Shown: positions 18,386 to 52,415 of the stretch, one piece after another
Layout: each line of letters begins with the position of its first letter
How positions within the stretch are numbered: the stretch's first letter is position 1
From: Chloroflexota bacterium
Lineage (GTDB): Bacteria > Chloroflexota > Anaerolineae > Anaerolineales > VGOW01
DNA length: 64,000 nt
Assembly: GCA_016213135.1 (NCBI GenBank)
Contig: JACRBQ010000098.1
Location: forward strand, 6,221 to 70,220
Direction: 5' to 3'
Notes under the pieces: model-generated
The model's database searches: none
The model's input: only the letters and a program-made list of their open reading frames with translations
Told to the model about the DNA's origin: nothing
Translations under genes and position numbers: made by a program

Positions 18386-18447
18386 CGCTCGACATTATAG
18401 CCGATGGCGGATGGGGAGCGGGCAGTGGTTAGTGGATAATGGGCAGC

Positions 18448-18486: not shown

Positions 18487-18500
18487 AGCGAGCAACAAGG

Positions 18501-21500
18501 TCAGCGTATAACTTCTTCCACCCGTGTCTGGATGGGTGCCGGCTCCGCCGCGGCGGTGATGGGCATCACCTTTGCGAAGAGGCCCGGATCGAAGTGCGCG
18601 ACGAGTGCGTTTGCCCGCGCGCTGCCGGTCAGCGCGGCGTGGCGGGCCACTTGCCGATGCAGCCATGCGGCATCGTCTTCGGTGAGCGGCGCGGTGGTCA
18701 CCAGAGTGGAGTTGATGAGTTCCTCGACGGGCAAAGGTTGACCATCCGTCAACACATAGGCTACGCCGCCGCTCATGCCTGCGCCAAAGTTTCGCCCAAA
18801 GCTGCCGAGGATTACCACCGCGCCGCCGGTCATGTACTCGCAGCCGTGGTCGCCCACGCCCTCGACTACTGCCGTGGCTCCCGAGTTGCGCACGGCAAAC
18901 CGCTCGCCCGCGCGCCCGGCGATGAACACCGCGCCGCTCGTCGCGCCGTAAAGGATGGCGTTGCCCGCCAGCACCGGGTGCCGGCCGTGGTAATCGGGCG
19001 AGGGGGCAATGACGATCTGCCCCCCGGCCAGCCCTTTGCCCACGTAATCGTTGGCCTCGCCGCGCAAATAAAAATGCAGGCCGGGCGTGGCAAACGCCCC
19101 GAACGATTGCCCGGCGCTGCCGCGCGCCCGCACGTTGATCGTGTCGGCGGGCAACCCGCCGGCCCCGTGCCGCCGGATGACGGCATTCGCCACGGGCGCG
19201 CCAAAGGTGCGCGTGCGGTTGGTCACCGGATATTTCACGTCCACCCGGTCGCCGCATTCCACGGCGCTCATCACTTCGGCCAGCAGGGCGCGGTTGAGCG
19301 GGGCCGCGCTGATAAGCAGGTTGGGGTGGCGCTCGTAGCGTCGCGGGCCGGGGGCGTCGGGCGGGGTGATGAGGCGGCTGAGGTCCACTGAGGGATTGCC
19401 CGGCAGACCCGGCGTCACCTGCTTCAGCAGTTCCACGCGGCCAACGGCTTCGTGCAGTGAGGCGAGACTCAATTGCCCCAATATCTCGCGCACTTCTTCG
19501 GCCACGAAACGCATGAAGGCCATGAGGCGTTCGGGCGGGGTGTGGAACTTGGCGCGCAGTTTGGGGTCTTGCGTGGCAATGCCCGCCGGGCAGGTATTGA
19601 GGTGGCAGGCGCGGGCCATCACGCAGCCCAGGGCCACCGCGGCCGCCGTGCCAAACGAAAACTCGTCCGCGCCCAGCAGCGCGGCCATCATCACGTCGCG
19701 CCCGGTGCGCAGGCCGCCGTCGGTGCGCAGCCGCACGCGCCCGCGCAGGCCGCTGTTCACCAGCGCGTGTTGGGTGTCGGCCAGGCCAAGCTCCCACGCC
19801 ACCCCGGCATACTTCACCGACGAGAGCGGTGAGGCGCCCGTGCCGCCGTTGTGCCCGCTGATGAGGATGATGTCGGCCCCGGCTTTGGCCACCCCGGCGG
19901 CAATGGTACCCACCCCGGCCTGCGCCACCAGTTTCACCGAGATGGCCGCGCGGGGGTTGATCTGCCGCAGGTCGTAGATCAACTGCGCCAGGTCTTCGAT
20001 GCTGTAGATGTCGTGATGCGGCGGCGGCGAGATGAGCATGATGCCGGGCTGCGCGTGTCGGATGGCGGCAATTTCGGCGGTGACTTTGTTGGAGGGCAAC
20101 TGGCCGCCCTCGCCAGGTTTGGAGCCTTGCGCCATTTTGATTTGCAACTCGTCGGCGCTGATGAGGTAACTGGGCGTGACGCCGAAACGGGCGGAGGCCA
20201 CTTGTTTGATCCGGTCGTTGCGCTCGACGGCGTAACGCGCGGGGTCTTCGCCGCCCTCGCCGGAATTGCTCCCTGCTCCCAACCGGTTCATGGCAATCGC
20301 CATTGCCTCGTGGGCCTCTTTGGACAGCGCCCCGTGCGACATTGCGGCGGTGGAAAAGCGGCGGACGATGGAGGCTACGGGTTCGACTATGGGCGGCCCA
20401 TCGATCGGTCCGGCTCGTAAGGGCGATTCATGAATCGCCCCTACCTCATCGATCGCCCGTACCGAAAAGTCCAGCAGATCGCGAAAGTCAACGGGCGGGC
20501 GCGCGTGGACGAGGCGGCTGTATTCTTTGTAGCGGGCATAGTCGCCAGCCTGTAGCGCGTTGTGCAGGGCCTTGACCACTGCCGGGCTGAAGGCGTGCGT
20601 TTCGCCATCGCGTTTGAATTTGTAGTAGCCCGGGGAATCGAGCAGCGAGGCTGCGTTATGCGGGGTGGCGGCAAAGGCGCGGGCGTGCCACGCCAGCACG
20701 ATTTTGCCGATGTCGGCCAGACCCAGCCCGCCGAGGTGGGCCGGGGTGCCCTCGAAGTGTTCGGCCACGACGGCGTTGGCCAGGCCGATGACTTCGAAAG
20801 TTTGCGCGCCGCAATAAGCGTCCACGGTAGTGATGCCTATTTTGGACATGATTTTGAAGAGGCCGTGTTCGGCGGCGTGCAGGTAGTTGCGTATGGCAAC
20901 CGAGGGGGTGATGGGGGCTTCGGCGAGACGGGCGGCGGTGGCAATGGCGAGGTAGGGGTTGATGGCATTGGCCCCGTATCCCAGCAGCGCGGCGAAGTGG
21001 TGCACGTCGCGCGGTTCGCCGCTTTCGACGATGAGGCTGACTCGCCCGCGTAATCCAATCCGCAGTAAGTGATGATGCACGGCGCTGACGGCCAGCAGCG
21101 AGGGGATGAAGGTGCGGGCCCAGTCCACGCCCACGTCGGAGAGGATGATAAGTTGCGCGCCGGATCGGGCTGCGGACTCGGCGCGGGCGCACAGCAGGTG
21201 AAGGTTGTGGGCCAGGCCGTTGGGCCGGGCGCAGACGGTGACAGGCGTCAACGTGGATAACGTGGTGGGCCGCAGAGGGGCGTCACGGCGGAGATGTTCG
21301 AGGGTGGCATCGGCGAGATAGGGGCTTTCCAGCTCGATCACCCGCGCGTGCGCGGGGGCTTCGTCCAACACATTAGGCCGCGCACCCAGCCGCACGCGCA
21401 GCGACATGACGTACGTTTCGCGGAGGTAGTCGATGGGCGGGTTGGTCACTTCCGCGAAGCGCTGGCGGAAGTACGAGAAGAGGGGGCGCGGTTTGGGCGA

Positions 21501-23393: not shown

Positions 23394-24137
23394 CTAATGA
23401 ACCGGCACGCCAAGATTGATGGTGATAGCGTAGTGCGTGTCGTCGTCGTGGAAGGTGAAGGCAGTTGCTCCCGGCTGGGCCTTCGGAAAGATGAAACTGC
23501 CGTACGCAGTGGCATTGGGGCTATTGGCCTCTAGCGTACACCCGTCAAGAGCAGCGCCGGTCAACCCGGTGAAGGAATAATGGTTACCGAAGTTGTCGAT
23601 CAAATACATGCCGGGATCGTTTCGGTACGATAGTTTAGTGACGTGGTTGCCCTGATCGGGCGGGATGCTCCAACTGACCTTGTATTCCATGTCCCCACTC
23701 TCGGCAACCACAACCGAGTTAATGCACCAGGTTACGTCACCCTCCATTGTCTCAAATCTAGGACCCTGGAGGAATTCAGTTACCTTCACCTGGCTGACGT
23801 GATAAGTAGCGCAGGCTCCGGACATCGGATAAGTGCCCGGCACAACGCCCAGAACAGGCACGGGGGTGGAGGTGGGAATGGGTCGCGGCGTGCGGGTGCG
23901 GGTGGGCGTGGGGCTGGCCGTGGGCGACGGGGTGGAAGTTGCCGAGGAAGTCGGCGTTGGGGTGGCCGTGGGGCTGCTGGTTGCGGTGGCCGAGGGGGTG
24001 TGGGAAGGCGACGGGGCGAGGGTGGGCGCGGACGTGGCCGCTTCGGTCGGCAGGGCGGCCACCGGGGCGGCGCAAGCTGACAGCAGCGCAAGGCCGAACA
24101 GCAAGCATACGACTCGGTATTTCTTGTCGGTGGTCAT
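23394..24137 (-). CDS. hypothetical lipoprotein with Pro/Thr/Ser-rich linker
   Basis: MTTDKKYRVVCLLFGLALLSAC lipobox, about 70 aa of PT/S-rich linker, then a lower-GC globular C-terminal domain with no recognisable motif. Confidence 0.6.
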   Translation of the reverse strand: MTTDKKYRVVCLLFGLALLSACAAPVAALPTEAATSAPTLAPSPSHTPSATATSSPTATPTPTSSATSTPSPTASPTPTRTRTPRPIPTSTPVPVLGVVPGTYPMSGACATYHVSQVKVTEFLQGPRFETMEGDVTWCINSVVVAESGDMEYKVSWSIPPDQGNHVTKLSYRNDPGMYLIDNFGNHYSFTGLTGAALDGCTLEANSPNATAYGSFIFPKAQPGATAFTFHDDDTHYAITINLGVPVH

Positions 24138-24241
24138 ATGTGATCCTTCCTCTATGGGCAAAGCCAGCGGCGAGCGTCAAGGTGGAAACTCGCTGCATAT
24201 TACTCCCATGTTAGAGTGTTGGGAAGTGATCAATGTCATGT

Positions 24242-28885: not shown

Positions 28886-29266
28886 ATGGACAAAATCAAG
28901 AGCTATCGAGACCTGCAGGTCTGGCAAAAGGCCGTTGAATTGTCAGTCGCTGTGTATCGCATCACTGACAACTTCCCAAAGTCCGAAGTCTATGGTTTGA
29001 GCAACCAAATGCGGCGGGCGGCGGTTTCAATCGCCTCCAACATTGCCGAAGGTCATCGCCGTTCGAATACAGAATTTGCCCGATACCTGATGATGGCGCT
29101 TGGCTCGCTGGCTGAACTGGAAACTCAACTCGAAATCGCCCACCGTGTGAACTATCTTGCCGAAGACACTTTCAACGAACTGATGCAGGATGCCGATATT
29201 CTGGGCCGCCAACTCAACACCCTCCATCAGCGCGTAGTCACCTCCAATCGATCCGCCGGCAACTAG
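28886..29266 (+). CDS. four-helix-bundle protein (23S rRNA intervening-sequence protein / Avd-like family)
   Basis: MDKIKSYRDLQVWQKAVELSVAVYRITDNFPKSEVYGLSNQMRRAAVSIASNIAEGHRR...SLAELETQLEIA is typical of this family. About 48% GC in a sampled stretch. The 185-aa ORF was trimmed to Met60. Confidence 0.85.
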   Translation: MDKIKSYRDLQVWQKAVELSVAVYRITDNFPKSEVYGLSNQMRRAAVSIASNIAEGHRRSNTEFARYLMMALGSLAELETQLEIAHRVNYLAEDTFNELMQDADILGRQLNTLHQRVVTSNRSAGN

Positions 29267-29292
29267 CTACTAACCACCAACAACCAACGACC
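29254..29292. repeat. right arm of the split palindrome (AACCACC/AACAACC heptamers), ending at the hisG ATG
   Basis: ...CTACTAACCACCAACAACCAACGACC-ATG(hisG). Reverse complement of the left arm core. Confidence 0.75.
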
Positions 29293-30300
29293 ATGATCCG
29301 CACCGACATCCGTCTCGCCCTCCCCTCCAAAGGCCGCCTCGAAGCCGACTCGCTCGACTTCCTCGCCGCCTGTGGCTTGCGAATCTACAAGCCCAACCCG
29401 CGCCAGTATCAGGCCACCATCCCTGCCATCCCCGGCCTCGCCGTCCTCTTTCAGCGCCCCGCCGATATTGTCGTCGGCGTGCGCACCGGCAGCATCGACT
29501 TCGGCCTCGCCGGATTGGACGTGGTGGAAGAGAAACGCGGCGACGACGGCGACGTATTGATCTTGCACGATGCCCTCGGATTCGGCGCGTGCTGCCTCAC
29601 CCTGGCCGTTCCCGAAGACTGGAGCGCCACCGATCTACAAGGCGCGCGCCGCCACATTCAAACCGCCATCTCCCCCCGGCCCGTACGCGTCGCCACAAAA
29701 TACCCCACGCTCACCGCCCGCTACCTCGCCGACCACGGCCTTGCCCCATTTGAACTCATCGACGCCGAAGGCACGCTCGAAGTGGCCCCCGCCATCGGCT
29801 ACGCCGACCTCATCTCAGACCTCGTCTCCTCCGGCCAGACCTTGCGCGACAACCGCCTCGCGCCTCTTGCCGACGGAGTGGTACTGCAATCACAAGCCTG
29901 CCTCATCGCCAATCGCGCCGCGCTCAAGGCTCGCCCCGAAGCCCTCTCCATCGCCCGCGAGTTGCTCGAATTCATGGAAGCTCACCTCCGCGCCGAACAC
30001 TACTTCATGGTCACCGCCAACATGCGCGGCGACTCGCCCGAAAGCATCGCCCACCTCATGTTCACCCAGACCGAATTGGGCGGCTTGCAAGGCCCCACGA
30101 TCTCGCCCGTCGTGCCGCGCGCGCCCGGCGACACGCGCTGGTTTGCCGTCAACATCGTCGTGCGCAAAGACCACATCTCCAGCGCCGTCACCCAACTGCG
30201 TTCCATCGGCGGCAGCGGCGTCATCGTCTCGCCCGTCACCTACATTTTTGAAGAAGAGCCGCAGCGATACAAAGCCATGCTGGATGCCCTGTCATGCTAA
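29293..30300 (+). CDS. hisG: ATP phosphoribosyltransferase, long form with C-terminal regulatory domain
   Basis: MIRTDIRLALPSKGRL..., DLVSSGQTLRDN, and a C-terminal HisG_C-like region (FMVTANM...). 335 aa. Confidence 0.9.
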   Translation: MIRTDIRLALPSKGRLEADSLDFLAACGLRIYKPNPRQYQATIPAIPGLAVLFQRPADIVVGVRTGSIDFGLAGLDVVEEKRGDDGDVLILHDALGFGACCLTLAVPEDWSATDLQGARRHIQTAISPRPVRVATKYPTLTARYLADHGLAPFELIDAEGTLEVAPAIGYADLISDLVSSGQTLRDNRLAPLADGVVLQSQACLIANRAALKARPEALSIARELLEFMEAHLRAEHYFMVTANMRGDSPESIAHLMFTQTELGGLQGPTISPVVPRAPGDTRWFAVNIVVRKDHISSAVTQLRSIGGSGVIVSPVTYIFEEEPQRYKAMLDALSC

Positions 30301-31589: not shown

Positions 31590-32674
31590 ACATTCAACCC
31601 CTCATCCGTCCCGAACTGCTCACGATGGAGCCGTACACGCCCATTGTGCCTTTCGACGTGCTTTCCGCCCGGTTGGGCCGCGCCCCCGCCGACATTATCA
31701 AACTCGACGCCAACGAGAACCCTTACGGCCCCTCGCCCAGAGCACGCGCCGCCCTTGCCTCGCTGCCGTTCCCGCACATTTACCCCGATCCCGAAAGCAC
31801 CGCGCTCCGCGCCGCGCTCGCCCGCGACCTCGGCCTGCCCGCGCAAAACATCCTCGCCGGTTCCGGCGCGGACGAACTGATCGACCTCATCCTGCGCCTC
31901 TTCATTTCTCCCGGCGATGCTGTGATTGATTGCCCGCCCACCTTTGGCATGTACTCCTTCGACACCGCCGTCAACGCCGGGCAACTCCTCACCGTCCCCC
32001 GCCGCGCCGACTTTTCCGTTGACGTGGCCGCCATCGAAAACCTCATTACTCATCACTCAAAACTCAAAACGCTGTTTCTTGCCTCGCCCAACAACCCCGA
32101 TGGCGGCCTGCTCGCCGACGCCGACCTGCGCCGCCTGCTCGACCTGCCGTTGGCGGTGGTGCTGGACGAAGCCTACATCGAATTCTCCGGCATGCCCGGC
32201 CACGCCGCGTGGGTTACGGAGCGCGACAACCTTATTGTCCTGCGCACCTTCAGCAAGCGCGCCGGGTTGGCCGGGCTGCGGGTGGGCTACGGCATATTCC
32301 CTTCCGCGCTCATGCCGCACCTGTGGAAGATCAAACAACCGTACAACGTTTCCGTGGCTGCCACCGCCGCCGCGCTCGCCTCGCTGGACGATCCGGGTTA
32401 CATGGGGCAGGTGGTGGCCGCGCTGGTGGCCGAGCGCAACCGCATGGCCGAGGCGCTGAGTGAGGTGCCGTTTGTGCGCGTCTATCCTTCGCACGCCAAC
32501 TTCGTCCTGTGTCGCATCGTAGGCCGCGACGCAAAGGAACTCAAATTCGAACTCGAACAGCGAGGCATTCTCGTGCGCTACTTCAACAAGCCCGGCCTCA
32601 CCGATTGCATTCGCATTTCGGCCGGCAAGCCGGAGCAGACCGATACCCTGGTGCAAGCGCTGAAGTCCGTGTAA
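31586..32674 (+). CDS. hisC: histidinol-phosphate aminotransferase
   Basis: IKLDANENPYGPSP, TFSKRAGLAGLRVGY (PLP lysine). ATGA overlap with hisD. Confidence 0.93.
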   Translation: MNIQPLIRPELLTMEPYTPIVPFDVLSARLGRAPADIIKLDANENPYGPSPRARAALASLPFPHIYPDPESTALRAALARDLGLPAQNILAGSGADELIDLILRLFISPGDAVIDCPPTFGMYSFDTAVNAGQLLTVPRRADFSVDVAAIENLITHHSKLKTLFLASPNNPDGGLLADADLRRLLDLPLAVVLDEAYIEFSGMPGHAAWVTERDNLIVLRTFSKRAGLAGLRVGYGIFPSALMPHLWKIKQPYNVSVAATAAALASLDDPGYMGQVVAALVAERNRMAEALSEVPFVRVYPSHANFVLCRIVGRDAKELKFELEQRGILVRYFNKPGLTDCIRISAGKPEQTDTLVQALKSV

Positions 32675-32676
32675 TT

Positions 32677-32742
32677 TCTGATTGTTGATTGCTGATTCTT
32701 GATTGAGTTCAAATCAGCAATCAGCAATCAGCAATCAACAAT
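32677..32742. repeat. junction palindrome, ATTGCTG/CAGCAAT units
   Basis: TCTGATTGTTGATTGCTGATTCTTGATTGAG-TTC-AAATCAGCAATCAGCAATCAGCAATCAACAAT. The right arm runs into the hisB ATG. Confidence 0.85.
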
Positions 32743-33328
32743 GAGAATATCAACCATCCACCGCCACACCAATGAGACCGACATCACGCTCACGCTGTCG
32801 CTCGACGGCTCGGGCAAGCACGACATTCAGACGGGCGTGGGCTTCCTCGATCATTTGCTGACGCACATTGCCGTGCACGGGCTGTTCGATCTCACCGTGC
32901 AGGCCGTGGGTGACCTGCACGTTGATACGCACCACACCATCGAGGACACGGCGCTGGCGCTGGGGCAGGCGTTCGATGAGGCTCTCGGCGACCGCAGCGG
33001 CATTGTGCGTATGGGGTCGGCCTACGTGCCGATGGACGAGTCGCTGGCGTTTGTGGCGGTGGACTTTTCGGGGCGGCCGTGCGCGGTGACGCAGGGGCAA
33101 TGGCACGGGCCGGTGATCGGGCAAGTGCCAACGACCCTGATTCCGCACTTCATCGAATCGTTCGCCGCGACTGCCCGGGCCAACGTTCACGCCAATGTGC
33201 TGTATGGCCGCGACGATCACCATCAGGCCGAAGCGTTGTTCAAAGCCCTGGGCCGCACGCTCGATGCGGCGACGATGATTGACCCTCGCCGGGCGGGAAA
33301 CGTGCCTTCGACAAAGGGGAGCCTGTGA
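32741..33328 (+). CDS. hisB: imidazoleglycerol-phosphate dehydratase (monofunctional, no phosphatase domain)
   Basis: [16 protein letters not shown]...GFLDHLL...HHTIED...[12 protein letters not shown]. 195 aa from Met15 of the ORF. Confidence 0.93.
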
Positions 33329-33384
33329 AGTGAAACGTGAAACGTGATTCGTCACGTATCACGCATTACGTGTTACGCATCACG
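33325..33384. repeat. junction palindrome, GTGAAAC/TCACG units
   Basis: GTGAAGTGAAACGTGAAACGTGA-TTC-GTCACGTATCACGCATTACGTGTTACGCATCACG (imperfect). Confidence 0.8.
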
Positions 33385-33391
33385 ACTAATT

Positions 33392-33994
33392 ATGATCGCT
33401 CTCATTGATTACGGCATTGGCAACTTACGCTCGGTGCAAAAGGCGCTCGAGCACGTGGGGGCCACGGTGACGCTTACCGAAGACGCCGATACGATTCTCG
33501 CCGCCGATAAAGTGGTGCTGCCCGGCGTGGGCGCGTTCGGCGACGGGATGAAGGGGCTGCGGGCGCGCGGCCTCGACGGTGTGGTGCGCGAGGTAGTCCG
33601 GCGCGGCGCGCCGCTGCTCGGCATTTGCGTGGGGATGCAAGTGCTGTTTGAAGCGTCCGACGAACTGGGCTTGCACGTGGGGTTGGGCCTCCTGCCGGGC
33701 CGGGTGGTGCGATTTGCCCCCCGGCAGTTGAAGGTGCCCCATACCGGATGGAATGAGATCGCCACGCGGCAATCGAGCAACCTTTTCCGCGATCTCCCCG
33801 CCGGATCGTTTGCCTATTTCAATCACTCGTATTATTGCGCCGCCGCGCCGGAGCTTACGCTGGCCGCCACCGATTACGGCGGGCCGTTTGCCTCGGTGGT
33901 GGGGCGCGGGCGGCTGTACGGCATTCAGTTCCATCCCGAAAAGTCGCAGGCCGTGGGGCTGACGCTGTTGCGAAATTTTGTGGAGCAGGGATGA
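33392..33994 (+). CDS. hisH: imidazole glycerol phosphate synthase, glutamine amidotransferase subunit
   Basis: MIALIDYGIGNLRSV..., GICVGMQ (catalytic Cys), QFHPEKS. Confidence 0.93.
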   Translation: MIALIDYGIGNLRSVQKALEHVGATVTLTEDADTILAADKVVLPGVGAFGDGMKGLRARGLDGVVREVVRRGAPLLGICVGMQVLFEASDELGLHVGLGLLPGRVVRFAPRQLKVPHTGWNEIATRQSSNLFRDLPAGSFAYFNHSYYCAAAPELTLAATDYGGPFASVVGRGRLYGIQFHPEKSQAVGLTLLRNFVEQG

Positions 33995-34716
33995 GCGCGT
34001 TCACGATTTATCCGGCGATTGATTTGCGCGCCGGCCGCGTGGTGCGATTAGCGCAGGGCGACCCGGCGCGGCTAACGGTGTATGGCGAAGACCCGGCGGC
34101 CACAGCTCGTCGGTGGCGCGACGAGGGGGCCGCGTGGCTGCACGTGGTGAATCTCGACGGCGCGTTTGGCGAAACTGCCGATGCGAACAGACGCGCGCTG
34201 GAGGAGATTGTTTCGGTGGGATTGAACGTGCAGTTCGGCGGCGGCCTGCGCGACGGGGCCGCCCTTCGGCGCGTGATGCAGTTGGGTGTGGCCCGCGCCG
34301 TGATCGGCACTGCTGCAGTGGAAACGCCCGCGCTGGTGGATGAGGCGCTAGCCGAGTTTGGCGCGGAGCGCGTTGCGGTGGGCGTGGACGCGCGCGAGGG
34401 CCGCGTGCGGTTGCGCGGCTGGGCTGAGGAGTCGGCGGTGACGGCGCTCGACCTTGCGCGGCGATTGCGCGGGCAGGGGGTGACGCGAATCATTTTCACC
34501 GACGTGGCGCGCGACGGAATGGGCGCGGGGGTGAACGTGGCCGCCACCGCCGAACTGGCCGCCGCCTCCGGGCTGGCCGTGATCGCCAGTGGCGGCGTAG
34601 CCACTGCCGATGACGTTCGCCGCGTGCGCGAAGCCGCCCTCGACGGAGTGATCATCGGACGCGCCCTCTACGAAGGCCACATTGATCTCCACCTTCTTCT
34701 GACCTCCGACCTCTGA
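33991..34716 (+). CDS. hisA: ProFAR isomerase
   Basis: [20 protein letters not shown]..., ...IASGGV... ATGA overlap with hisH. Confidence 0.92.
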
Positions 34717-34774
34717 CCTCTCACTTCCCTCTTCTCTCTTCTCACTTCCCTCTTCCCTTTTCTCTCTTCCTCCC
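34690..34774. repeat. 85-nt polypyrimidine tandem tract (CTCTTCC/CTGACCT units), one arm only
   Basis: CTGACCTCCGACCTCTGACCTCTCACTTCCCTCTTCTCTCTTCTCACTTCCCTCTTCCCTTTTCTCTCTTCCTCCC ends 1 nt before the hisF ATG. Its first part encodes the hisA C-terminus ...LLLTSDL. Confidence 0.85.
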
Positions 34775-34775
34775 T

Positions 34776-35639
34776 ATGCTTGCCAAACGCCTCATCCCCT
34801 GCCTCGATGTCAAAGATGGCCGCGTCGTCAAAGGCGTCCACTTCGTGAGCCTGCGCGACGCGGGCGACCCGGTGGAACAGGCGCACATTTACGACGCCGA
34901 GGGCGCGGACGAATTGGTGTTTCTAGACATCTCTGCCACGCCCGATGGTCGCGCCACTGTGGCTCCCATGGTGCGCCGTGTGGCCGACGATGTGTTTCTG
35001 CCGCTTACCGTGGGCGGCGGCATCCGCACCGTGGACGACATGCGCGCCATCCTGCTGGCCGGGGCCGACAAAGTGAGCATCAATTCGGCGGCGGTCAAAA
35101 CGCCCGAACTGATTTCCGCCGGCGCGGAACGGTTCGGCAGCCAGTGTGTGGTCGTCGCCATTGATGCGAAGCGAGTTGCAATGAACAATGAGACGATGAA
35201 CAATGAACAATGGGCCGACGGCCAGCCGCCAGCTACCAACAACCAGTCACAAGCCACCAATCCCCAGCCACCCACTACCAACCACCAGCCCCGCTGGGAA
35301 GTCTACGTTTCCGGCGGTCGCACGCCCACCGGATTGGACGCGCTCGAATGGGCGGCGCGGGTGGTGGAGCTGGGCGCGGGCGAAATTTTGCTCACCAGCA
35401 TTGACGCCGACGGGACAAAAAACGGGTATGATTTGGCACTCACGCGTGCCGTGGCCGAGATCGTTCCGGTGCCGGTGATTGCCAGCGGGGGGGCGGGGTC
35501 ACTGGCGCATTTTGCGGAAGTGCTCACCGAGGGCCGCGCCGACGCCGCGCTGGCCGCCTCGCTCTTTCACGACAAGCTGCTGTCCATTGGCGAGGTGAAA
35601 TCCTATCTGGCAGCGCAGGGAGTTGTAGTGCGGCGATAG
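34776..35639 (+). CDS. hisF: imidazole glycerol phosphate synthase cyclase subunit, with a low-complexity insertion of about 35 aa
   Basis: [20 protein letters not shown]..., ...[10 protein letters not shown][[38 protein letters not shown]][10 protein letters not shown]..., [22 protein letters not shown]. Confidence 0.93.
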
Positions 35640-35744: not shown

Positions 35745-35852
35745 GTACATCGAAGAGAAATCTGCTGTAGGCGGACACGAAGTCACGAAGTCACGGAGCC
35801 ACTAAGTTTTCTTTGTGGCTTTGGGCCGTCGTGCCTTGGTGGCACAAAGGAA

Positions 35853-39401: not shown

Positions 39402-39683
39402 ATGTCTTTCCTCTACACCCTCCAATCCATCATCCAGGATCGCAGAGCCAACCCCCGGCCCGGCTCGTACACCGCCGGCCTCTTCGCCGCCGGTGAAGAT
39501 GAAATCGTGAAGAAAGTCGGCGAAGAGGCCGTCGAAGTCATCCTGGCCGTCAAAGGGCAGGGCGACGAGCGCATCATCTCCGAAACCGCCGACCTGCTGT
39601 ATCACACCCTCGTCCTCCTCGCCCAGCGTGGCCTCACCCTTGAACAAGTGGAAGCGGAACTCGAACGTAGGCATGGGAAATGA
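39402..39683 (+). CDS. hisE: phosphoribosyl-ATP pyrophosphohydrolase (monofunctional)
   Basis: [28 protein letters not shown]...[13 protein letters not shown]. Confidence 0.9.
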
Positions 39684-39774
39684 AAAATGGCAAATGGCGA
39701 ATGAGAAATGAACATCGACGTTCTTAATACTCCAAACTCCAAACTCAAAACTCAAAACTCAAAACTCAAAACTC
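39675..39774. repeat. two-part tandem array: AAATGR units followed by CTCAAAA units
   Basis: GGGAAATGAAAAATGGCAAATGGCGAATGAGAAATGAA ... ACTCCAAACTCCAAACTCAAAACTCAAAACTCAAAACTCAAAACTC. The two halves are not complementary to each other. Confidence 0.85.
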
Positions 39775-39780
39775 GCCTTT

Positions 39781-40815
39781 ATGACTCACTTTTTGTTCGA
39801 CATGGACTCCGTCCTCCTCCATCCGGGCGGGTATCGCGCCGCGCTCATTGCCACCGTGGATCACTTCTCGCAGGTGTTGGGGTTTGGCGAGACGCGATTG
39901 ACGATCGACGAAATCGAATCGTTTGAAGCGGCAGGCATCACCAGCGAATGGGACTCGGCCCCCATCTGCGTGGCCGCGCTGGCCCTCGGCGGTGGCCGTC
40001 GCCCGGACTTTGCAGCCCTCACCCAACGCCTCAGCGCCGAACTCCGCCGCGCCGAATTCCCCGCCGAGGCCGCCCACCGCCTGTGGGCCGCGTACCTGCC
40101 CTCGGCCAACGGCCTCAACTTCCACGACATTCTGCTTCACTCCCGCGACATCGACCGTTCGCCGGTCATGGCCGTGTTTCAGCAATTCACCCTCGGCCCG
40201 GCGTTTGAAGCGGCCTACGGCCTGCCGCGCACTATCGTAAGTGAAGCCTATCTGCTGAAGTATGATCGCCCCGCGCTCGGCGTTCCCGTGCCTCCCCGCT
40301 CGGCCATTTATACCGCCCGGCCCTCCAACCCTCCGCGCGGCACGCCACCCCAAACTGGTTACGCCCCCGAAGCCGAACTCGGCGCGGAACTGGTCGGCCT
40401 CGGCCATTTGCCCATCATCGGCTATGGCTCGATGCAATGGCTGGCCGGGCAGGTGGGCGGGCACGGGGAGCACTTCCTCAAGCCCTCGCCGGTGCAGGGG
40501 CTGGCCGCCATCGGCGCGGCGGCGGGGCTGCCCGAGCCGGAGGCCCTGCTCGCCGCTCACGCGCTGGCGCACGGCAACGGCCCGCACCCGTTGCAGGCCC
40601 TGGGCGAGGGGAGGGTGATGGTGTTTGAGGATTCGGCAGGCAGCATCCGAGGAGTGCGCGAGGCCGTGGCCCTGTTAGGGGCAGGCTGGGAGTGCGTGGG
40701 CATCGGGATTGCCGGCGGCGGCCCCAAACTGGCGGCGTTGGCAAAAGTAGCCGATCGGGTTTATCCTTCCATCAACGACGCTTTGAAAAACGAAAACGGA
40801 GGCTCGAATGACTGA
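39781..40815 (+). CDS. HAD-superfamily hydrolase-like protein, unknown substrate
   Basis: Motif I FLFDMDSVLL (DxDxV) at the N-terminus and motif IV-like VMVFEDSAGSIRGV near the C-terminus. 344 aa, which implies a large cap region. Confidence 0.6.
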   Translation: MTHFLFDMDSVLLHPGGYRAALIATVDHFSQVLGFGETRLTIDEIESFEAAGITSEWDSAPICVAALALGGGRRPDFAALTQRLSAELRRAEFPAEAAHRLWAAYLPSANGLNFHDILLHSRDIDRSPVMAVFQQFTLGPAFEAAYGLPRTIVSEAYLLKYDRPALGVPVPPRSAIYTARPSNPPRGTPPQTGYAPEAELGAELVGLGHLPIIGYGSMQWLAGQVGGHGEHFLKPSPVQGLAAIGAAAGLPEPEALLAAHALAHGNGPHPLQALGEGRVMVFEDSAGSIRGVREAVALLGAGWECVGIGIAGGGPKLAALAKVADRVYPSINDALKNENGGSND

Positions 40816-44108: not shown

Positions 44109-44738
44109 TCACTCGTGACGAGCGTGAGCTGCTTGAATAAATAACCTGACCTTCGCCGCGTCTTTCGTGCGAGGGGAATGTTCCACGCCGGAGGCCACGT
44201 CCACACCCCAGGGCATCACCTGCCGCACGGCCTCGGCTACGTTGACTGGTGTGAGGCCGCCTGCCAACAGCACCCGCCACTGCCGGGCCGCCTCGGTGGC
44301 CGCGCCCCAGTCGGCAGTGCGGCCCGTGCCGCCGTATTCGCCGGGGACGTGGGCATCGAGCAAAATGTCCGGGCGGTTGGGGGGTGAAGCGTGATTTGTG
44401 AAACGTGAGGCGTGAGTGAGGTGGCGCAATCCTTTGAATCCGCGCGCGCCCATTGCGGCCAGCACTGCCTCCGGCTCGTCGCCGCTCAACTGAGCAAAGT
44501 CCAGCCCGCACTCGTCGAGCACCGCAGCCATGAATGCCGCCGTTTCGTTGACGAACACGCCCACGAGAGCGGGGGGCCGGGGCAGGGCGCGCAGGGCGGC
44601 GGCGATCTCGCGGGCCGCTTCGGGTGACACGTATCGCTTGCCCTGCCGATAGAAGTTCAACCCGATCAGGTCGGCCCCGGCCTCGGCGCACATTAGCGCG
44701 TCGGCGACGGTGGTGACGCCGCAAATTTTGACTTTCAT
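44109..44738 (-). CDS. trpF: phosphoribosylanthranilate isomerase, with a repeat-derived internal segment
   Basis: MKVKICGVTT...ADLIGLNFY...; segment ...RHLTHASRFTNHASP... is encoded by GTGA-type heptamers at 44381-44426. Confidence 0.9.
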   Translation of the reverse strand: MKVKICGVTTVADALMCAEAGADLIGLNFYRQGKRYVSPEAAREIAAALRALPRPPALVGVFVNETAAFMAAVLDECGLDFAQLSGDEPEAVLAAMGARGFKGLRHLTHASRFTNHASPPNRPDILLDAHVPGEYGGTGRTADWGAATEAARQWRVLLAGGLTPVNVAEAVRQVMPWGVDVASGVEHSPRTKDAAKVRLFIQAAHARHE

Positions 44739-44812
44739 GGAATTCAGTAGCCAGTAGCCAGTAGCCAGAAGTATCAACTTCTGAATTCTGACTCCTGGCT
44801 TCTGACTCCTGC
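44739..44812. repeat. junction palindrome, GTAGCCA/CAGAAGT versus ACTTCTG units
   Basis: GAATTCAGTAGCCAGTAGCCAGTAGCCAGAAGT-ATCA-ACTTCTGAATTCTGACTCCTGGCTTCTGACTCCTGCC (imperfect). The right arm encodes the trpC C-terminus. Confidence 0.8.
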
Positions 44813-45574
44813 CAGTTCCCTCACCTTCGTCCCCACGTCGCCCGCGCGCACAAGGGCCTCGCCCACCAGCACCGCGTCCACGCCCAACCCGGCTGCGTCA
44901 GCGCGAGAGCCGATGCCGCTCTCGGCCACCACGGTGATGCCCGGTGGCAGCAGGGGGCGCAGCGTGCGCGTGGTGTCGAGGCTCACGCTAAAGTCGCGCA
45001 GGTCGCGGTTGTTGATGCCCACCAACGTTGCACCGCAGTTCAGCGCGCGCGCCAGTTCGTCGCGGCGGTGCACTTCCACCAGCGCGGCCAGGCCCAACTT
45101 CCCGGCACGCGCCTTCAACGACAGCAGTTCGTCATTGCTTAACCCGGTCACGATGAGCAGTACCGCGTCGGCCCCGGCGGCGCGAGCCTCGTAAAGCTGA
45201 TACTCGTCGCAGATGAATTCCTTTCGCAGCAGCGGCAAGCCAAGGTTCAACGCGGCGATCTGCCGCAGGTGTTCGAGCGAGCCGCCGAAGTATTTTTCGT
45301 CGGTGAGCACCGAGATGGCCGCCGCGCCGTTGGCGGCGTAAGTCTGCGCCAGCCGCACGGGGGCGAAGTCCGTCACCATCACGCCTTTGGAGGGCGAGCC
45401 TTTTTTTACTTCGGCGATCAGGGCCGGGCCGGGGGCGCGTTGGAGCGCAGCGGCGAAATCCAGCGGTGGGCGGGCCGTTTTGATCTGCCGTATCAGTTCG
45501 ATGACAGGCACGCGCTGCTTTTGCGCGGCCACCTCGACCCATTTGTGGGCGAAGATTTCGGAGAGGATAGTCAT
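44774..45574 (-). CDS. trpC: indole-3-glycerol phosphate synthase
   Basis: MTILSEIFAHKWVEV..., LIAEVKKGSPSKG, LVGINNRDL. Trimmed to Met60 of the ORF. Confidence 0.92.
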   Translation of the reverse strand: MTILSEIFAHKWVEVAAQKQRVPVIELIRQIKTARPPLDFAAALQRAPGPALIAEVKKGSPSKGVMVTDFAPVRLAQTYAANGAAAISVLTDEKYFGGSLEHLRQIAALNLGLPLLRKEFICDEYQLYEARAAGADAVLLIVTGLSNDELLSLKARAGKLGLAALVEVHRRDELARALNCGATLVGINNRDLRDFSVSLDTTRTLRPLLPPGITVVAESGIGSRADAAGLGVDAVLVGEALVRAGDVGTKVRELAGVRSQESEFRS

Positions 45575-47197: not shown

Positions 47198-48247
47198 CTA
47201 CTCGTTCTCGCCAAAAATATCCACCGTGTCCTGAAACAACTCGGCCACGTAGCCCAGCCCTGCCGCCTCACGTGCCAGCCGCATCGTCTCTTTGGCTTCG
47301 GCCTGCATCCGGCGGATACCGTTGGCGATCACATCCTGCAGGAGCAATGGCCGTGTCATGTATCGAGCGCGGCGCTCGCGGAACGGATCAAGGAAATCGT
47401 TGAGGGCGGCGGCGAGTCTGGCTTTCACTTCTACGTCGCCCACCTTGCCTGCGCGATAACGCTCTTTCAACTCGGCCACTTCGGCCTTGTTCGCGTTGAA
47501 AGCATCGTGATAGATGAAGACCGGGTTTCCCTCGACAGCGCCGGGGTCGGTGGCGCGCAGGCGGTTGGGGTCGGTGTACATGCCCTTCACCTTAGTTCCC
47601 ACCGTTTCCGCGTCGTCCGAGAGAAAGATAGCGTTGTTCAGCGACTTGCTCATTTTGGCGCTTCCGTCCGTGCCCACGAGTGTTGGCACTTCGCCCACCA
47701 ACACGTCAGGCTCAGGGAAGACGGGCGCATACAACAGGTTGAAACGGCGGGCGACCTCGCGGGCCAGTTCGACATGCGCCTGGTTATCTTTGCCCACCGG
47801 AACGATGTTGGCGCGTGGAAGCAGAATATCCACCGCTTGCAGAACGGGGTAGCCCAGCAGGCCGAACGGCATCGTATCCAGGTTGGCATCGCGGGCCATG
47901 TCTTTCAGCGAAGGCAATCGTTCCAGGCGCGGCACGGTGACCAGCATCTCGAACAGCAGGTTGAGTTCGTAAGTTTCTGGGATGGCCGACTGGACGAAAA
48001 TGGTGGAAAGCTCCGGGTCAATGCCGACGGCTAAATAGTCCAGCACGATCTCACGAATGTAGCCGGGGATTTCGCGGATGAAGTCGCGCTCCGGTTTCGT
48101 CGTCAGTGTGTGCAGGTCGGCGATGATGAAGAAGGCTTCGTACTCGTGTTGAAGTTTGATTCGGTTGGCGAGACTGCCCACGTAATGGCCGAGATGCAGT
48201 CGGCCGGTGGGGCGGTCGCCGGTAAGCAAACGGGGTTTAGTGGTCAT
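47198..48247 (-). CDS. trpS: tryptophanyl-tRNA synthetase
   Basis: [16 protein letters not shown] (HIGH-type motif), KMSKS at ...SAKMSKSL... About 349 aa. Confidence 0.93.
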
Positions 48248-48260
48248 GTTGATCCTCGAG

Positions 48261-48322
48261 AAATTGCTGATTGCTGATTTGTGATTGCTGATTGACAATC
48301 GGCAATCAACAATCACAAATTT
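48261..48322. repeat. junction palindrome, ATTGCTG/CAATC units
   Basis: AAATTGCTGATTGCTGATTTGTGATTGCTGATTG-A-CAATCGGCAATCAACAATCACAAATTT. Overlaps the trpE stop codon. Confidence 0.82.
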
Positions 48323-49794
48323 CCTTCCGCTATTTCAACAGCCTTGATCAAAGCTCGCGCTTTGTTCATCGTCTCTTCGTATTCCTTCGCCGGATCAGAG
48401 TCGGCGACGATGCCTGCCCCGGCCTGCACGCTCACCGTTTGGCCGCGCATGTGCAGGGTGCGAATAGTGATGCAGGTGTCCATCGAGCCGTCGAAGCCTA
48501 CGTAGCCCACCAGCCCGGCGTACGAGCCGCGCGGTTCGCCTTCCAGTTCGGCGATGATTTCCATGGCTCGCACTTTGGGCGCGCCGCTCACGGTTCCCGC
48601 CGGGAAGGTGGCCCGGATGAGATCGTAAGCGTCCCGCCCCGATCCCAGTTCGCCGCTGACGTGCGAGACGATGTGCATCACGTGCGAGTATCGCTCCACC
48701 AACATCAATTCCGAGACCTTCACCGAGCCGTAGTTGCACACGCGCCCGATGTCGTTGCGGCCCAGGTCCACCAGCATCACGTGCTCGGCGCGCTCTTTGG
48801 GGTCGGCCAGCAGTTCGGTTTCGTTGGCGGCGTCGGACTGCAGGGTGGCGCCGCGCGGGCGGGTTCCGGCAATGGGGCGCACCACGGCGGTGCGGCCTTC
48901 GAGGCGGGTGAGGATTTCCGGCGATGCGCCGATGAGGTGCAGCGGCTCCCCGGCCAGCGATCCGAAGTCGAAGAAGAACATGTATGGCGACGGGTTGAGC
49001 CGTCGCAAGCTGCGATAGATGTCGAAGGGGCCGGCCGTGGTTTGGCGCGAGAGGCGTTGCGAGAGCACCACTTGAAAAATGTCGCCGGCGGCGATGTGCT
49101 CTTTGGCGCGGCGCACCTTCTCTTCAAACGCCTCGCGGGTGATGTTGGATTGCACGGCGTTGGCGGCAGCCATGCCATGGGGTGCGGGGGCAGGGGAGGG
49201 GGCGGCGGTTTGCAACCGCTCGGCCAGCGCGGTCAACCGGGTCTCGGCGGCGGCCCGCTCCGTGGCGGGGACGGTGGTCATCAGCAGCGTGCGGCCACGG
49301 GTGTGGTCGAAGGCCACGATGGTATCGGCCAGCAAAAAGATTCCGTCGGGCAGTTCGCCGTGGGGCAGGTTGAGGCGCGGCTCGAAGAACTGCACGGTTT
49401 CGTAACCGAGATAGCCCACCATGCCGCCGATGAAGCGCGGCAGGCCGGGCGTGTGCTCCACGGCGTAGCCCGACAGTTCGGCGCGAATGGCCTCCAGCGG
49501 ATCGGCGTCGGGGGCCAGCGCGGCCGTGGTCACCTGCCCGTCTGCGTGGCGCTCGATGATGCGCCCGCGCAGCACCAGCGCCACTTTTGGCTCCACGCCG
49601 ATGAACGAGTAGCGGCCCACCTGCTCGCCGCCGGTGACGCTTTCTAGCAGGAAGCTGGGCGACCCCCCGCCGGACAATTTGAGGTACACCGATACCGGGG
49701 TGTCGAGGTCGCTGGCGATCTCGCGCGTGACGGTGAGGTGAGAGTCGGAGCTGAGAGTTGGAGTGAGAGTGAGAGTATCACTATTGAGCAGCAT
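48313..49794 (-). CDS. trpE: anthranilate synthase component I
   Basis: LESV.GG ([16 protein letters not shown]), ...[15 protein letters not shown]... Start at Met49 of the ORF, with a GGGAGA RBS. Confidence 0.93.
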
Positions 49795-50282: not shown

Positions 50283-50356
50283 GAGGAAGTGCTTGTGCGC
50301 TCCGCACAGACTTGCGGCCATGGGCGCGTCCACTTTGCACAACGACCGCCGCTGAA

Positions 50357-50422
50357 CTTCAAACTCCAAACTCCAAACTCAACATTCAACATTCGTCATT
50401 TTCCATTTTCCATTTACCATCC
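50357..50422. repeat. two-part tandem array: CCAAACT units, then CCATTTT units
   Basis: CTTCAAACTCCAAACTCCAAACTCAACATTCAACATTCGTCATTTTCCATTTTCCATTTACCATCC. Shares both unit types with 39675-39774, one of them inverted. Confidence 0.85.
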
Positions 50423-52415
50423 TCCACACCCTTAGCGCCTCGGCCACGCTCCACGCCTGCGCCATGCAGCCCTCCGGCTTGAACGGCGCGGTCGCGTCAT
50501 AAATCTCCGCCAGGCTGCCCACGCCGAACTGCGTCATCACCTCGGCCAGCGGCTGCAAAAACGCTGCCGCTTGCGCCCGGTCGCCGTACACCTTGAAGTG
50601 CGCCTCCACAAACGGCCCGATGAGCCAGCCCCAGGCTGTGCCCTGATGATAGGCCCCGTCGCGCCGGTAGCGGTCGCCGCCGTACGTCGCCACAAAGCCG
50701 GGATGGTCGGGCGCGAGCGACCGCACCCCGTACGGCGTGAGCAGCGCGCGCCGGCATACGTCCACCACCGCGCGGGCGCGGGCCTCCGTCGCCGCCAACG
50801 GCGCATACGGCAGCGACACGGCCAACAACTGATTGGGCCGCAGCGAAGAGTCGTCGCCGCCCTCCGGCGTGTCGATCACGTCGAACAAATAGCCGCCCTC
50901 CGCAAACCAAAAGCGGTCAAAGCTCGCCGCCGCCCTCGCCGCCCGCGCGCCGTAATCGTGCGCGGCCCGCACTCCCAGCTGCCGCGCCAGCGCCTCCATG
51001 GCCCGCAGCGCATTGATCCACAGCGCGTTAATTTCCACCGGCTTGCCGACGCGCGGCGTCACCACCCAATCGTCCACCTTCGCATCCATCCACGTCAGTT
51101 GCACCCCCGGCACACCGGCGGCAATCAACCCGTCGGCCTCGCAGCGAATGCCATACCGCGTGCCGCGCAAGTGCCAGCCCACAATATCCTCCAGCACCGG
51201 CCACAACTCGCGCCCCAGCGCCTCGTCGCCCGTCGCCGCCACGTATCGATCCACGGCGTGGAAATACCACAGCGTCGCGTCCACCGTGTTGTACTCCGGC
51301 TGCTCGCCGGAATCGGGAAAACGGTTGGGCAGCATCCCCCGGCTCACGTGCCGCGCAAACGTGCGCAGTAAACTGGTCGCTACCTCGGGCCGCCCCGTGC
51401 TCAGCGTCAGCCCGGGCAGCGCAATCATCGTGTCGCGCCCCCAATCGCTGAACCAGTGATACCCGGCAATTACCGTGCGCTCCGGGCCGTCGTTCGCGCG
51501 CCACTCCGTCGCGGCGGGCAGGTTGGCCTCTGTTCTTAAGACGACGAATTGATCAGCCGCGAGAACCAGTTGCTGAACCCAACCCGGCGCATCCAGTGAC
51601 GCCGCTCGCAACAGATCGCCGTGACGCCGCCCCACTGCCTCCCGAGCCGCACGCCAGTGGTGCACCTCCTCCGTCGGACGTTCGGCGCTTACCAATATGG
51701 CAAACGCCTCGCCGGGGGAAAGCGTGGCCGTAATCGCGCCGATCTTCAGTGCATCTTCGAGGTCGGGCTGGCCGCGCTCCGTTTCCACGCGGTGACGTAT
51801 CCCGTTGATCCACGCCGGGGAGGTGTTGAACGCGCCCCCCGGAAACAGAATCCATATCGGGTGCGCGTTGGGGAACAGAGTCACTTTCACTCCGCCGTCA
51901 ACGGCTTCAATAGCCGGATGCCAGTCGCTCGCCCTCGTCTCGCCGTGGAAGTCGCGGTGGTTGAGCAGCGGCGCAATCTCCAGCGCCAGCGGCACGGTGC
52001 CGCTTGTGTATTCGTAAACCGTCCAGGCCGCATTGTGGCCGTGGGGCATGAACACCGCTTTCTGCAGATCGGCCTCGCCCAGGCGAAAGTGCCAGTGCGG
52101 CGCGCCATCGGCCAACTCGAACCGCTGCAAATGCTCCCAGCCGCGCGGGTCAATCGTCCCGTCGGCGAACTCGTTGCTCGTCAGGCCGTAGCGCATCCCG
52201 CCCACAGTGGCCCAATCGTCCAGCTTGTTGACCAGCACCGTGCGCCCCACCGGCGGGTGCAATGCCGCCACCAGCGCCCCGTGGTAACGGCGAGTGTTGG
52301 CCCCGGCCACCGTGCCGCTGGCCCAACCACCGAGGCCATTGGTCACCAGCCACTCGCGGCGCAGCGCCTCGGCATCCGTGCGCCACTCGACGGGAGAAAG
52401 TGAAAAGGTCGGCAT
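50379..52415 (-). CDS. glycogen debranching enzyme (amylo-alpha-1,6-glucosidase, archaeal/bacterial GDE type)
   Basis: N-terminal EWLVTNGLGGWASGTVAGANTRRYHGAL, C-terminal (alpha/alpha)6 GDE_C-like region ...GTAWGWLIGPF... The last residues ...NGKWKMTNVEC are encoded by the repeat. Confidence 0.85.
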   Translation of the reverse strand: MPTFSLSPVEWRTDAEALRREWLVTNGLGGWASGTVAGANTRRYHGALVAALHPPVGRTVLVNKLDDWATVGGMRYGLTSNEFADGTIDPRGWEHLQRFELADGAPHWHFRLGEADLQKAVFMPHGHNAAWTVYEYTSGTVPLALEIAPLLNHRDFHGETRASDWHPAIEAVDGGVKVTLFPNAHPIWILFPGGAFNTSPAWINGIRHRVETERGQPDLEDALKIGAITATLSPGEAFAILVSAERPTEEVHHWRAAREAVGRRHGDLLRAASLDAPGWVQQLVLAADQFVVLRTEANLPAATEWRANDGPERTVIAGYHWFSDWGRDTMIALPGLTLSTGRPEVATSLLRTFARHVSRGMLPNRFPDSGEQPEYNTVDATLWYFHAVDRYVAATGDEALGRELWPVLEDIVGWHLRGTRYGIRCEADGLIAAGVPGVQLTWMDAKVDDWVVTPRVGKPVEINALWINALRAMEALARQLGVRAAHDYGARAARAAASFDRFWFAEGGYLFDVIDTPEGGDDSSLRPNQLLAVSLPYAPLAATEARARAVVDVCRRALLTPYGVRSLAPDHPGFVATYGGDRYRRDGAYHQGTAWGWLIGPFVEAHFKVYGDRAQAAAFLQPLAEVMTQFGVGSLAEIYDATAPFKPEGCMAQAWSVAEALRVWRMVNGKWKMTNVEC

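Follow-up and report, generated by a model that had tools for sequence, protein, structure and literature searches.

Repeats lodged within conserved genes are known from both bacteria and eukaryotes. Rickettsia palindromic elements (RPEs) are discrete palindromic elements of ~100–150 bp, present in many dispersed copies, that sit in frame in conserved genes and map to the protein surface. In the eukaryotes Plasmodium falciparum and Dictyostelium, slippage has produced Asn/Gln-rich, disordered surface-loop inserts in conserved enzymes; these inserts evolve fast and are largely dispensable, and the driver is trinucleotide repetition or AT-rich base composition. Arrays of the STRR type (short tandemly repeated repetitive sequence) are said to lie within the gene for RNase P RNA in heterocyst-forming cyanobacteria, a finding attributed to Vioque in 1997. 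We describe here arrays of heptanucleotide (7-nucleotide, 7-nt) repeats that are read in frame within hisF, the gene for the cyclase subunit of imidazole glycerol phosphate synthase. The DNA is a stretch of 64,000 nucleotides (hereafter, the window; contig JACRBQ010000098.1 of GenBank assembly GCA_016213135.1) from a Chloroflexota bacterium that occurs in groundwater metagenomes. On the reading that we favor and judge probable, the hisF insert is a resident heptanucleotide simple sequence repeat (SSR) in a permissive hairpin tip, its turnover driven by slippage or unequal exchange and its translation product a disordered loop that the enzyme does not need.

Heptanucleotide repeats are themselves familiar from bacterial genomes. 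The part of MacGregor (2015, PMC4679880) drawn on here cites Mrazek, Guo and Shah (2007) for long simple sequence repeats (LSSRs) of heptanucleotide unit, which are mostly intergenic and for which slippage was proposed; by the same account, the SSRs met most often within coding regions are those with units that are multiples of 3. That part of the paper also describes direct repeats of TAACTGA in marine Beggiatoaceae, cyanobacteria, and Bacteroidetes, located just upstream of start codons and differing between strains by indels in 7-nt increments. The few TAACTGA arrays that it places within open reading frames (ORFs) run in the orientation that is free of stops; one encodes LSVINYQLS, in a surface loop that is variable, in an RNA polymerase beta-prime-like protein.

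The in-frame insert of HisF

The hisF gene and the parts of it that concern us are the following.

34776..35639, forward strand: hisF, an ORF encoding the imidazole glycerol phosphate synthase cyclase subunit (287 amino acids, aa), with HisF matches in the PDB.
35148..35177, forward strand: strand beta5 with the catalytic Asp130, the N-terminal arm of the hairpin; DSSP strand 125–133 in the model.
35178..35294, forward strand: in-frame insert, residues A135–R173 (39 aa, 117 nt), with no counterpart in solved HisF structures.
35179..35213, forward strand: array 1, CAATGAA, CAATGAG, ACGATGA, ACAATGA, and ACAATGG in a 7-base register; period 7 by Tandem Repeats Finder (TRF).
35222..35292, forward strand: array 2, ten degenerate CCARCYA heptamers, equal to 3.3 copies of a 21-nt/7-aa unit.
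35295..35321, forward strand: WEVYVSGGR, the returning strand and C-terminal boundary of the insert; DSSP strand 174–178 in the model.

We identify the protein as HisF by full-length similarity, the catalytic Asp pair, and the barrel fold; enzyme activity together with HisH is predicted. Solved structures that it resembles include 4evz (HisF-LUCA, E=2e-100), 1ka9 of T. thermophilus (E=9e-89), and the HisF of T. maritima (~1e-73), to which both halves align, and its precomputed domain assignment is PF00977. The catalytic residues D11 (beta1) and D130 (beta5), in T. maritima numbering, are invariant in a 43-sequence alignment that includes the window HisF. An AlphaFold2 model built on this alignment has a predicted template modeling score (pTM) of 0.82, and its (beta/alpha)8 barrel has a predicted local distance difference test score (pLDDT) mostly >90; against HisF crystal structures, the target-normalised TM is 0.90–0.94 (Foldseek). 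The gene belongs to a his operon of the order hisG-D-C-B-H-A-F-I, with hisH and hisA directly upstream of hisF, and the order is the same in the close relative L081.

Residues 1–135 and 174–286 align to solved HisF, leaving residues 136–173 (38 residues) unmatched. A preliminary description of this DNA had reported a low-complexity in-frame insertion at 35178–35291; our boundaries fall within 3 nt of these positions, and the peptide and DNA that it gave are exact. The 117 nt keep the frame and contain no stop, and beyond them the 43-sequence alignment has no substitution at W174, V176, G180, G181, or R182. The insert starts five residues past Asp130, on the catalytic face of the barrel. We take the site to be the beta5'-beta5'' hairpin of HisF, on the catalytic C-terminal face and opposite the face where HisH docks; a longer tip of this hairpin would presumably project into the solvent. 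In the AlphaFold2 model, residues 137–169 have pLDDT <50 and lie between strands 125–133 and 174–178, which bears out the earlier suggestion of a surface loop on the (beta/alpha)8 barrel: the insert is a predicted disordered loop at the surface hairpin tip of an intact barrel.

Both halves of the insert are direct, head-to-tail arrays of 7-nt period, and they are adjacent. TRF reports period 7 at 35179–35212 (4.7 copies) and period 14 at 35242–35272, and a repeat search recovers three copies within array 2 that are 21 nt apart (35222, 35243, and 35264). The insert is identical to itself at 0.61 of positions at lag 7, 0.51–0.64 at lag 14, and 0.51–0.69 at lag 21, against ~0.2–0.4 at most other lags, one of which reaches 0.53; within array 2, the identity at lags 7, 14, 21, and 28 is 0.63, 0.64, 0.69, and 0.61. 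The units of array 2 are CCAGCCG, CCAGCTA, CCAACAA, CCAGTCA, CAAGCCA, CCAATCC, CCAGCCA, CCCACTA, CCAACCA, and CCAGCCC.

Since 7 has no factor in common with 3, all three frames are used in reading the array, which creates 7-aa repeats, makes the repair of stops necessary, and confines change to 21-nt steps. A pure (CAATGAA)3 array would read ATG AAC AAT GAA CAA TGA in every frame, giving MNNEQ-stop. The frame of array 1 stays open because one of its units is truly 8 nt long (ATGAGACG), giving a coding period of 15 nt, and because TGG replaces TGA, such that the array reads ATGAACAATGAGACG (MNNET), then ATGAACAATGAACAA (MNNEQ), then TGG (W). The amino acid composition of the insert departs from that of the window genes (N 20.5% vs 2.5%; Q 15% vs 3%), and it employs codons that are rare in those genes: AAT, CCA, GCA, GCT, TCA, and ACT.

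Other kinds of insert were considered and rejected. An intein is at least ~130 aa, and this insert has 39; it begins with A-M-N, ends with Q-P-R before W, and contains no Cys/Ser/Thr ... His-Asn splice junctions. A self-splicing intron or a bypass is rejected, as the RNA is without structure and there is no in-frame stop. The insert RNA does not form a hairpin, its minimum free energy of -19 kcal/mol being weaker than that of 184 of 200 shuffles (z=+1.32), and the repeat search of the insert found no inverted repeat. At <=3 mismatches in 18–19 nt, neither half of the insert has a second copy in the 64-kb window. The fusion boundary of the HisF half-barrels is rejected as well: the insert lies after beta5, and 0 of the 120 listed homologues are split there. 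The HisF-N/HisF-C split presumably lies near residue 122/123, between alpha4 and beta5.

Variation among close strains

Two close strains, L081 (NCBI GCA_041643075.1) and L082 (a Logan contig), match the window at ~96% of positions across the hisF flanks (third-position identity, 0.87–0.91). L081 is shorter by exactly 21 nt, or three units, in array 2, and encodes a 280-aa HisF. L082 is shorter by 99 nt: it has lost one array 1 unit and all of array 2, one unit remains, and the product is a HisF of canonical length (254 aa) with the loop KRKTMNDETWEVY. The L082 short allele is a secondary deletion, because all of the more distant relatives have at least two MNNE units. The preliminary description had proposed looking for close relatives without the insert, and L082 is such a strain; if its gene works, its allele shows that the insert is dispensable. 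Array length at the hisA/hisF junction likewise varies among the window, L081, and L082, and the hisF reading frame is intact in every allele seen.

That the insert arose in assembly or binning, for instance as a chimera joined via the low-complexity repeat, is scarcely credible. De Bruijn unitigs do break within array 1, with one loose end that suggests a variant with an extra unit, and in run X1 the word depth rises to 8,600–17,900 at 35154–35225 from ~14 across the rest of hisF. The depth spike arises because the k-mers of the CAATGAA array are common to many far more abundant sequences in the groundwater metagenome. Against an artefact stand a gap-free contig from run X2 over 34980–35390, a contig from run X3 that spans 35178–35406, the independent assembly L081 with the insert minus 21 nt, and dozens of independent homologues with inserts at the same codon.

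Some observations on these data stand apart. Many X1 contigs match just 35179–35212 and then diverge, some into heptamer arrays of GTGAAAC or TAGCCGA. Two sludge metatranscriptome runs with 4–6% of words in common were rejected as not from this organism. L081 has, at 4055–4597 between hisB and hisH, an extra gene of 180 aa with no Pfam match, which is absent from the window (33328–33344); L081 and the window therefore differ in gene content within the his operon.

The same site across HisF homologues

We compared the 120 closest homologues, at 62–100% identity and covering 99–100% of the query. Judged by the names of the nearest ones, the host is of an Anaerolineae or Thermoflexia type. Most have an extended loop. 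Measured from IDA to GGR, the loop varies from 8 to 95 residues around a baseline of 15, and the longer loops are mostly repetitive: VERGAWS x2.5, GQAPSASQHGELVEPS x4, types such as NPKSQ, NLQSPIS, and SISTRSVQ, and MNNET x2–5. The distribution of loop lengths among the 120 homologues has no clear 7-aa periodicity. The extremes are P0083 and P0065, one with 8 residues (the hairpin tip is deleted) and the other with 95 (four copies of a 16-aa repeat).

At the nucleotide level, other Chloroflexota carry clean heptamer arrays at the hisF site with units of their own: (GCAATCT)x5 in L203, (CCAATTA)x4.7 in L204, (CCAATCT)x4.7 in L205, (CTCAGCC)x4 in L007 (Promineifilaceae), (GCAGAAG)x4 in L046 (Ardenticatenaceae), and (ACCATTM)x5 in L010. 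L012 and L016 carry (GCAGTGA)n followed by (TTCATAA)n, and one of the TTCATAA units is TTCACAA, which turns the in-frame TAA of the pure array into CAA. We read this change as a second stop repair, the probable signature of a translated array. These hisF inserts have their top autocorrelation at lags 7, 14, and 21, and the genomes have heptamer arrays at gene junctions in the flanking 6 kb; there is no lag-7 signal in the same-site inserts of three Bacillota, L027 and L033 (metagenome-assembled genomes, MAGs, of Lachnospiraceae) or of L068 (a Halanaerobiales MAG). The hairpin tip thus appears to be a generally permissive site, occupied in Chloroflexota by the heptamer repeats of the lineage. 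The preliminary description had allowed for an ancestral loop, in which orthologues across the phylum would share a homologous insert of non-repetitive sequence; the homologues do carry something at this site, but it is made of repeats, varies greatly, and has for the most part no sequence in common.

These comparisons bear on whether the loop is a lineage-specific functional segment, for instance a lid, an interaction surface, or a regulatory element, that is selected as a peptide and in which the repeats are incidental. Its emergence five residues past Asp130 on the catalytic face fits such a role, as do the presence of an extension in most of the nearest homologues and the motif MNNETMNNE(Q/H), which is common to several relatives at 76–94% protein identity. 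Against it, a loop of 8–95 aa with mostly unrelated sequences is a poor candidate for a selected peptide, the near-identical strain L082 makes do with the canonical short loop, and the segment is predicted to be disordered. The composition simply follows from CA-rich heptamers read in three frames, and conservation, where present, is at the codon rather than the peptide level. We consider a selected peptide unlikely.

Heptamer arrays at the gene junctions

The insert belongs to a class of sequence that is widespread in the window. We scanned the whole window in stretches of 63 nt for a lag-identity of >=0.56; segments number 11 at lag 7, 10 at lag 14, and 7 at lag 21, vs 0–4 at any other lag from 4 to 24. 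Ten of the 11 lag-7 segments lie at gene junctions (1080–1164, 10961–11072, 18386–18510, 32662–32775, 33308–33402, 34671–34799, 39668–39806, 44724–44826, 48244–48337, and 50323–50459), and the hisF insert is the sole intragenic one. By TRF, period-7 arrays far outnumber those of other periods, nearly all are at gene boundaries, and the unit differs at almost every junction. Junctions usually carry two or three adjoining arrays with different units, like the hisF insert; examples are ATTGCAG then TCCGAAA, TGATGCG then TCACGTT, and ACTCAAA x6.6. Two junctions, at 4961–5058 and 35767–35847, have units of 8 nt.

The preliminary description had held that the insert is built from the vocabulary of the junction repeats. 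The claim stands: both are of the same 7-nt unit class, and the 13-mer CAATGAACAATGA is enriched, with 6 occurrences at <=2 mismatches against 0.79 expected, a count reached in 0 of 100 shuffles. The three matches outside hisF are all in junction arrays (32679, 32732, and 48303), where 11–12 of the 13 bases are in common with the hisF insert.

A chain of events can be proposed from these patterns. The arrays of the insert would be of the class that fills almost every gene junction of the host genome, and would lengthen or shorten by replication slippage or unequal recombination. Within hisF, a change would survive only if it preserved the frame and introduced no stop, making the effective unit 3 x 7 = 21 nt (7 aa), and heptamers that contain stops would carry fixes, namely the 8-nt unit and the change of TGA to TGG. 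The product would be a disordered loop rich in N, Q, P, and T that the enzyme can dispense with, in a hairpin turn that may tolerate almost any length. The comparisons show the anatomy and periodicity of the insert, its loop position in the model, the unit indels between strains, and its recurrence across the clade. Slippage, near-neutrality, and the translation of the loop, this last from frame and stop avoidance, are what we infer from the alleles and arrays compared.

Conservation and recurrence of the CAATGAA array

Four relatives, L202–L205, have a third-position identity to the window of 0.41–0.56 in hisF. They were chosen for retaining the peptide MNNETMNNE, an ascertainment that favors conservation, though synonymous sites are not constrained by the choice itself. 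Across the five lineages, the 30 nt of array 1, ATGAACAATGA[G/A]AC[A/G]ATGAACAATGAACAA, are nearly invariant. The 8-nt unit is at an identical place in all five, and array 1 would therefore derive from common ancestry rather than from repeated insertion; nor is it a recent insertion, because it is common to lineages with only 41–56% third-position identity. The array thus appears to be old, resident, and in constant turnover.

The same ancestry bears on the preliminary description's suggestion that the insert resembles an RPE, a mobile repeat inserted in frame. The likeness holds insofar as the insert is in frame, in an essential and conserved gene, at the surface of the fold, and lacking from a close relative. 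It fails on the palindrome, the hairpin, the dispersed copies, and the mechanism: the insert has no inverted repeat, neither half has another copy in the 64 kb, strains differ by unit indels and not by presence or absence of a whole element (L082 retains one unit), and the array is ancestral to lineages whose synonymous divergence is near saturation. An RPE-like insertion is very improbable.

Several points weigh against slippage in a permissive hairpin as a full account. Array 1 has a mean pairwise nucleotide identity of 0.927, vs a maximum of 0.897 in the other 30-nt windows of hisF (n=230), and a third-position identity of 0.86, vs a maximum of 0.78 and a mean of 0.53 elsewhere in the gene; the excess persists against only the 101 windows with >=90% amino-acid identity. 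It retains AAT, a rare codon that makes up 20% of Asn codons, along with GAA and CAA, both of them minority codons. Purely neutral slippage does not predict this conservation of nucleotides. In addition, copy-number polymorphism within the population, which turnover by slippage would produce, is only hinted at, by the unitig breaks and the one loose end in assembled contigs.

These points raise the alternative of maintenance at the level of nucleic acid, for the array or at any rate its CAATGAA half, on grounds common to it and the junction arrays and with the peptide a by-product. It could be a binding site on the his-operon mRNA or DNA for a putative heptamer-reading factor, or gene conversion could homogenise it with other (CAATGAA)n arrays. 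Array 1 is, as above, the most conserved 30 nt of hisF in nucleotides and at synonymous sites, with non-preferred codons retained. L204 (2296–2335) and L205 (1428–1460) carry a further (CAATGAA)n array at the 3' junction of hisF, of the same unit as the array in their hisF loop and again with an 8-nt ATGAAACA unit; it supplies the stop codon and the tail that comes after ...VVR, which is MNNEQ-stop in L204 and ANNEQ-stop in L205. Nearly every junction of the his operon is occupied by an array. Furthermore, many Chloroflexota MAGs have (CAATGAA)n beside a start or a stop codon, often as inverted pairs; of the first 80 matches listed, ~17 are of this kind. A control unit of matched composition, (AGACATA)n, turns up just as often among the matches listed, but these come from cyanobacteria and Bacteroidota and none from Chloroflexota; the preference for CAATGAA can thus be claimed as Chloroflexota-specific only, not as globally special.

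Other evidence runs counter to maintenance of the nucleic acid. L082 is without one array 1 unit and all of array 2, and its gene is undisrupted; many relatives carry wholly different units at the hisF site; the insert RNA is unstructured; and gene conversion has no second (CAATGAA)n donor array in the 64-kb window. The compared lineages were selected for MNNETMNNE, which biases them to conservation, though not at synonymous sites. We also know of no binding factor for heptamer arrays. On balance, maintenance of the array as nucleic acid is possible but rather improbable, and we continue to favor a slippage-prone resident repeat in a permissive hairpin.

A broader extension, which we offer as a speculation and ourselves doubt, is that the heptamer arrays of Chloroflexota are a sequence-specific and actively maintained family, and not a passive residue of slippage, found at operon junctions and domesticated in the hisF hairpin after colonising it. 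The units with a CAAT core (CAATGAA, GCAATCT, CCAATCT, and GCAATCA) would be its preferred ones. If such a family exists, the near-perfect conservation of CAATGAA and its 3'-end duplicate in two relatives would reflect templated generation or conversion of arrays, or else a factor that binds RNA or DNA and recognises heptamers.

Junction arrays of the his operon and other repeats of the window

Three junctions of the operon deserve separate description.

29272..29293, forward strand: spacer upstream of hisG, AACAACC x3.1, CA-rich like array 2.
32674..32745, forward strand: hisC/hisB junction, a TGATTGT-type heptamer array followed by an inverted one, AATCAGC x4.4, which together make a long, perfect hairpin.
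34698..34770, forward strand: hisA/hisF junction spacer, TCTGACC x3.4 plus CTTCCCT x6.7, of a length that varies among strains.

The first two correspond to the arms at 29254–29292 and 32711–32742 with which the insert had been compared in the preliminary description: the former is the CA-rich array upstream of hisG, and the latter is the hisC/hisB array with units like those of array 1, in which CAATCAACAATGA at 32732 has 1 mismatch to array 1. The region 32670–32750 folds at -36.1 kcal/mol (z=-6.8). The hisC/hisB junction thus has inverted arrays and a hairpin, whereas the hisF insert has direct arrays only and is unstructured. Inside the operon and directly before the hisB start, this hairpin could serve in attenuation, in RNA stability, or in processing.

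The spacer before the hisF start (34716–34776) is pyrimidine-rich and ends ...TCTTCCTCCCT-ATG; it has CCTCC, which resembles an anti-Shine-Dalgarno sequence, and not a purine-rich ribosome-binding site. Several other starts in the window follow CA- or CT-rich arrays without an obvious Shine-Dalgarno sequence. The gene that ends at 44777 on the reverse strand has a C-terminal tail, ...GVRSQESEFRS, encoded by the heptamers GTCAGAA, GCCAGGA, GTCAGAA, and TTCAGAA (44777–44830); junction arrays therefore also lengthen the ends of proteins. This array, on the reverse strand, continues into the junction, and its inverted partner TACTGGC x3 follows.

A stretch of hisC at 32042–32070 (ACTCAAA x2.3) was considered as a second intragenic insert and rejected, since alignment to a solved HisC (8bj4) gives a difference in length of just 1 residue there; its unit is identical to that of the junction array at 39729–39774. 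The window also has intragenic repeats of another kind, with periods that are multiples of three: 58388–58676 (within the ORF 58387–58815, reverse strand), 23843–24051 (within the ORF 23394–24161, reverse strand), and 63520–63670. These non-heptamer repeats are of period 15/30 (GCGAGGTTGGCTCCC-type), of period 6/12/18 and G-rich, and of an acidic GACGAGGAA-type.

Comparison with described repeat systems

In hisF, a genome-wide mutational habit, the expansion of 7-nt repeats, has been written into a textbook enzyme. The hairpin tip after beta5, which tolerates 8–95 residues, would be of use in engineering HisF, a standard scaffold in enzyme design. In practical terms, the junction arrays of Chloroflexota fragment metagenome assemblies and mislead gene callers on the starts and ends of genes. 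If the synonymous conservation of array 1 holds, it points to a function or a maintenance mechanism for heptamer repeats, a question that has stood since STRR sequences were described.

The closest likeness is to the bacterial heptanucleotide LSSRs and cyanobacterial STRR sequences, which, like the hisF arrays, consist of head-to-tail 7-nt units that vary in copy number between close strains. The window arrays differ in their host, a Chloroflexota bacterium, and in the great diversity of their units; the hisF units, CAATGAA and CCARCYA, are neither STRR consensus units nor TAACTGA, and so are of the same kind without belonging to those named families. Unlike LSSR and STRR arrays, the array in the window lies in a protein-coding gene for an enzyme and is read in frame. 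We found no description of heptamer arrays in Chloroflexota in the literature searched.

TAACTGA in its forward orientation has stops in all three frames, as does pure CAATGAA. The TAACTGA system has a single dominant unit and the window has many. The TAACTGA arrays within ORFs are in the stop-free orientation, whereas hisF has a stop-containing unit in the sense orientation that is repaired; in the part of the TAACTGA paper considered here, the in-ORF arrays are short (three units), and neither conservation nor hypervariability over a clade is shown for them.

Compared with RPEs, the hisF insert has no palindrome and no dispersed copy in the window, and it varies by repeat units. Compared with the inserts of Plasmodium and Dictyostelium, its generator is of 7 nt, in a bacterium of 64% GC, and yields a peptide with a 7-aa period from the reading of all three frames. 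What differs here is the phylum, the diversity of units, the repair of a stop-containing unit in the sense orientation, persistence of the site across a clade combined with hypervariability, and the synonymous conservation of array 1.

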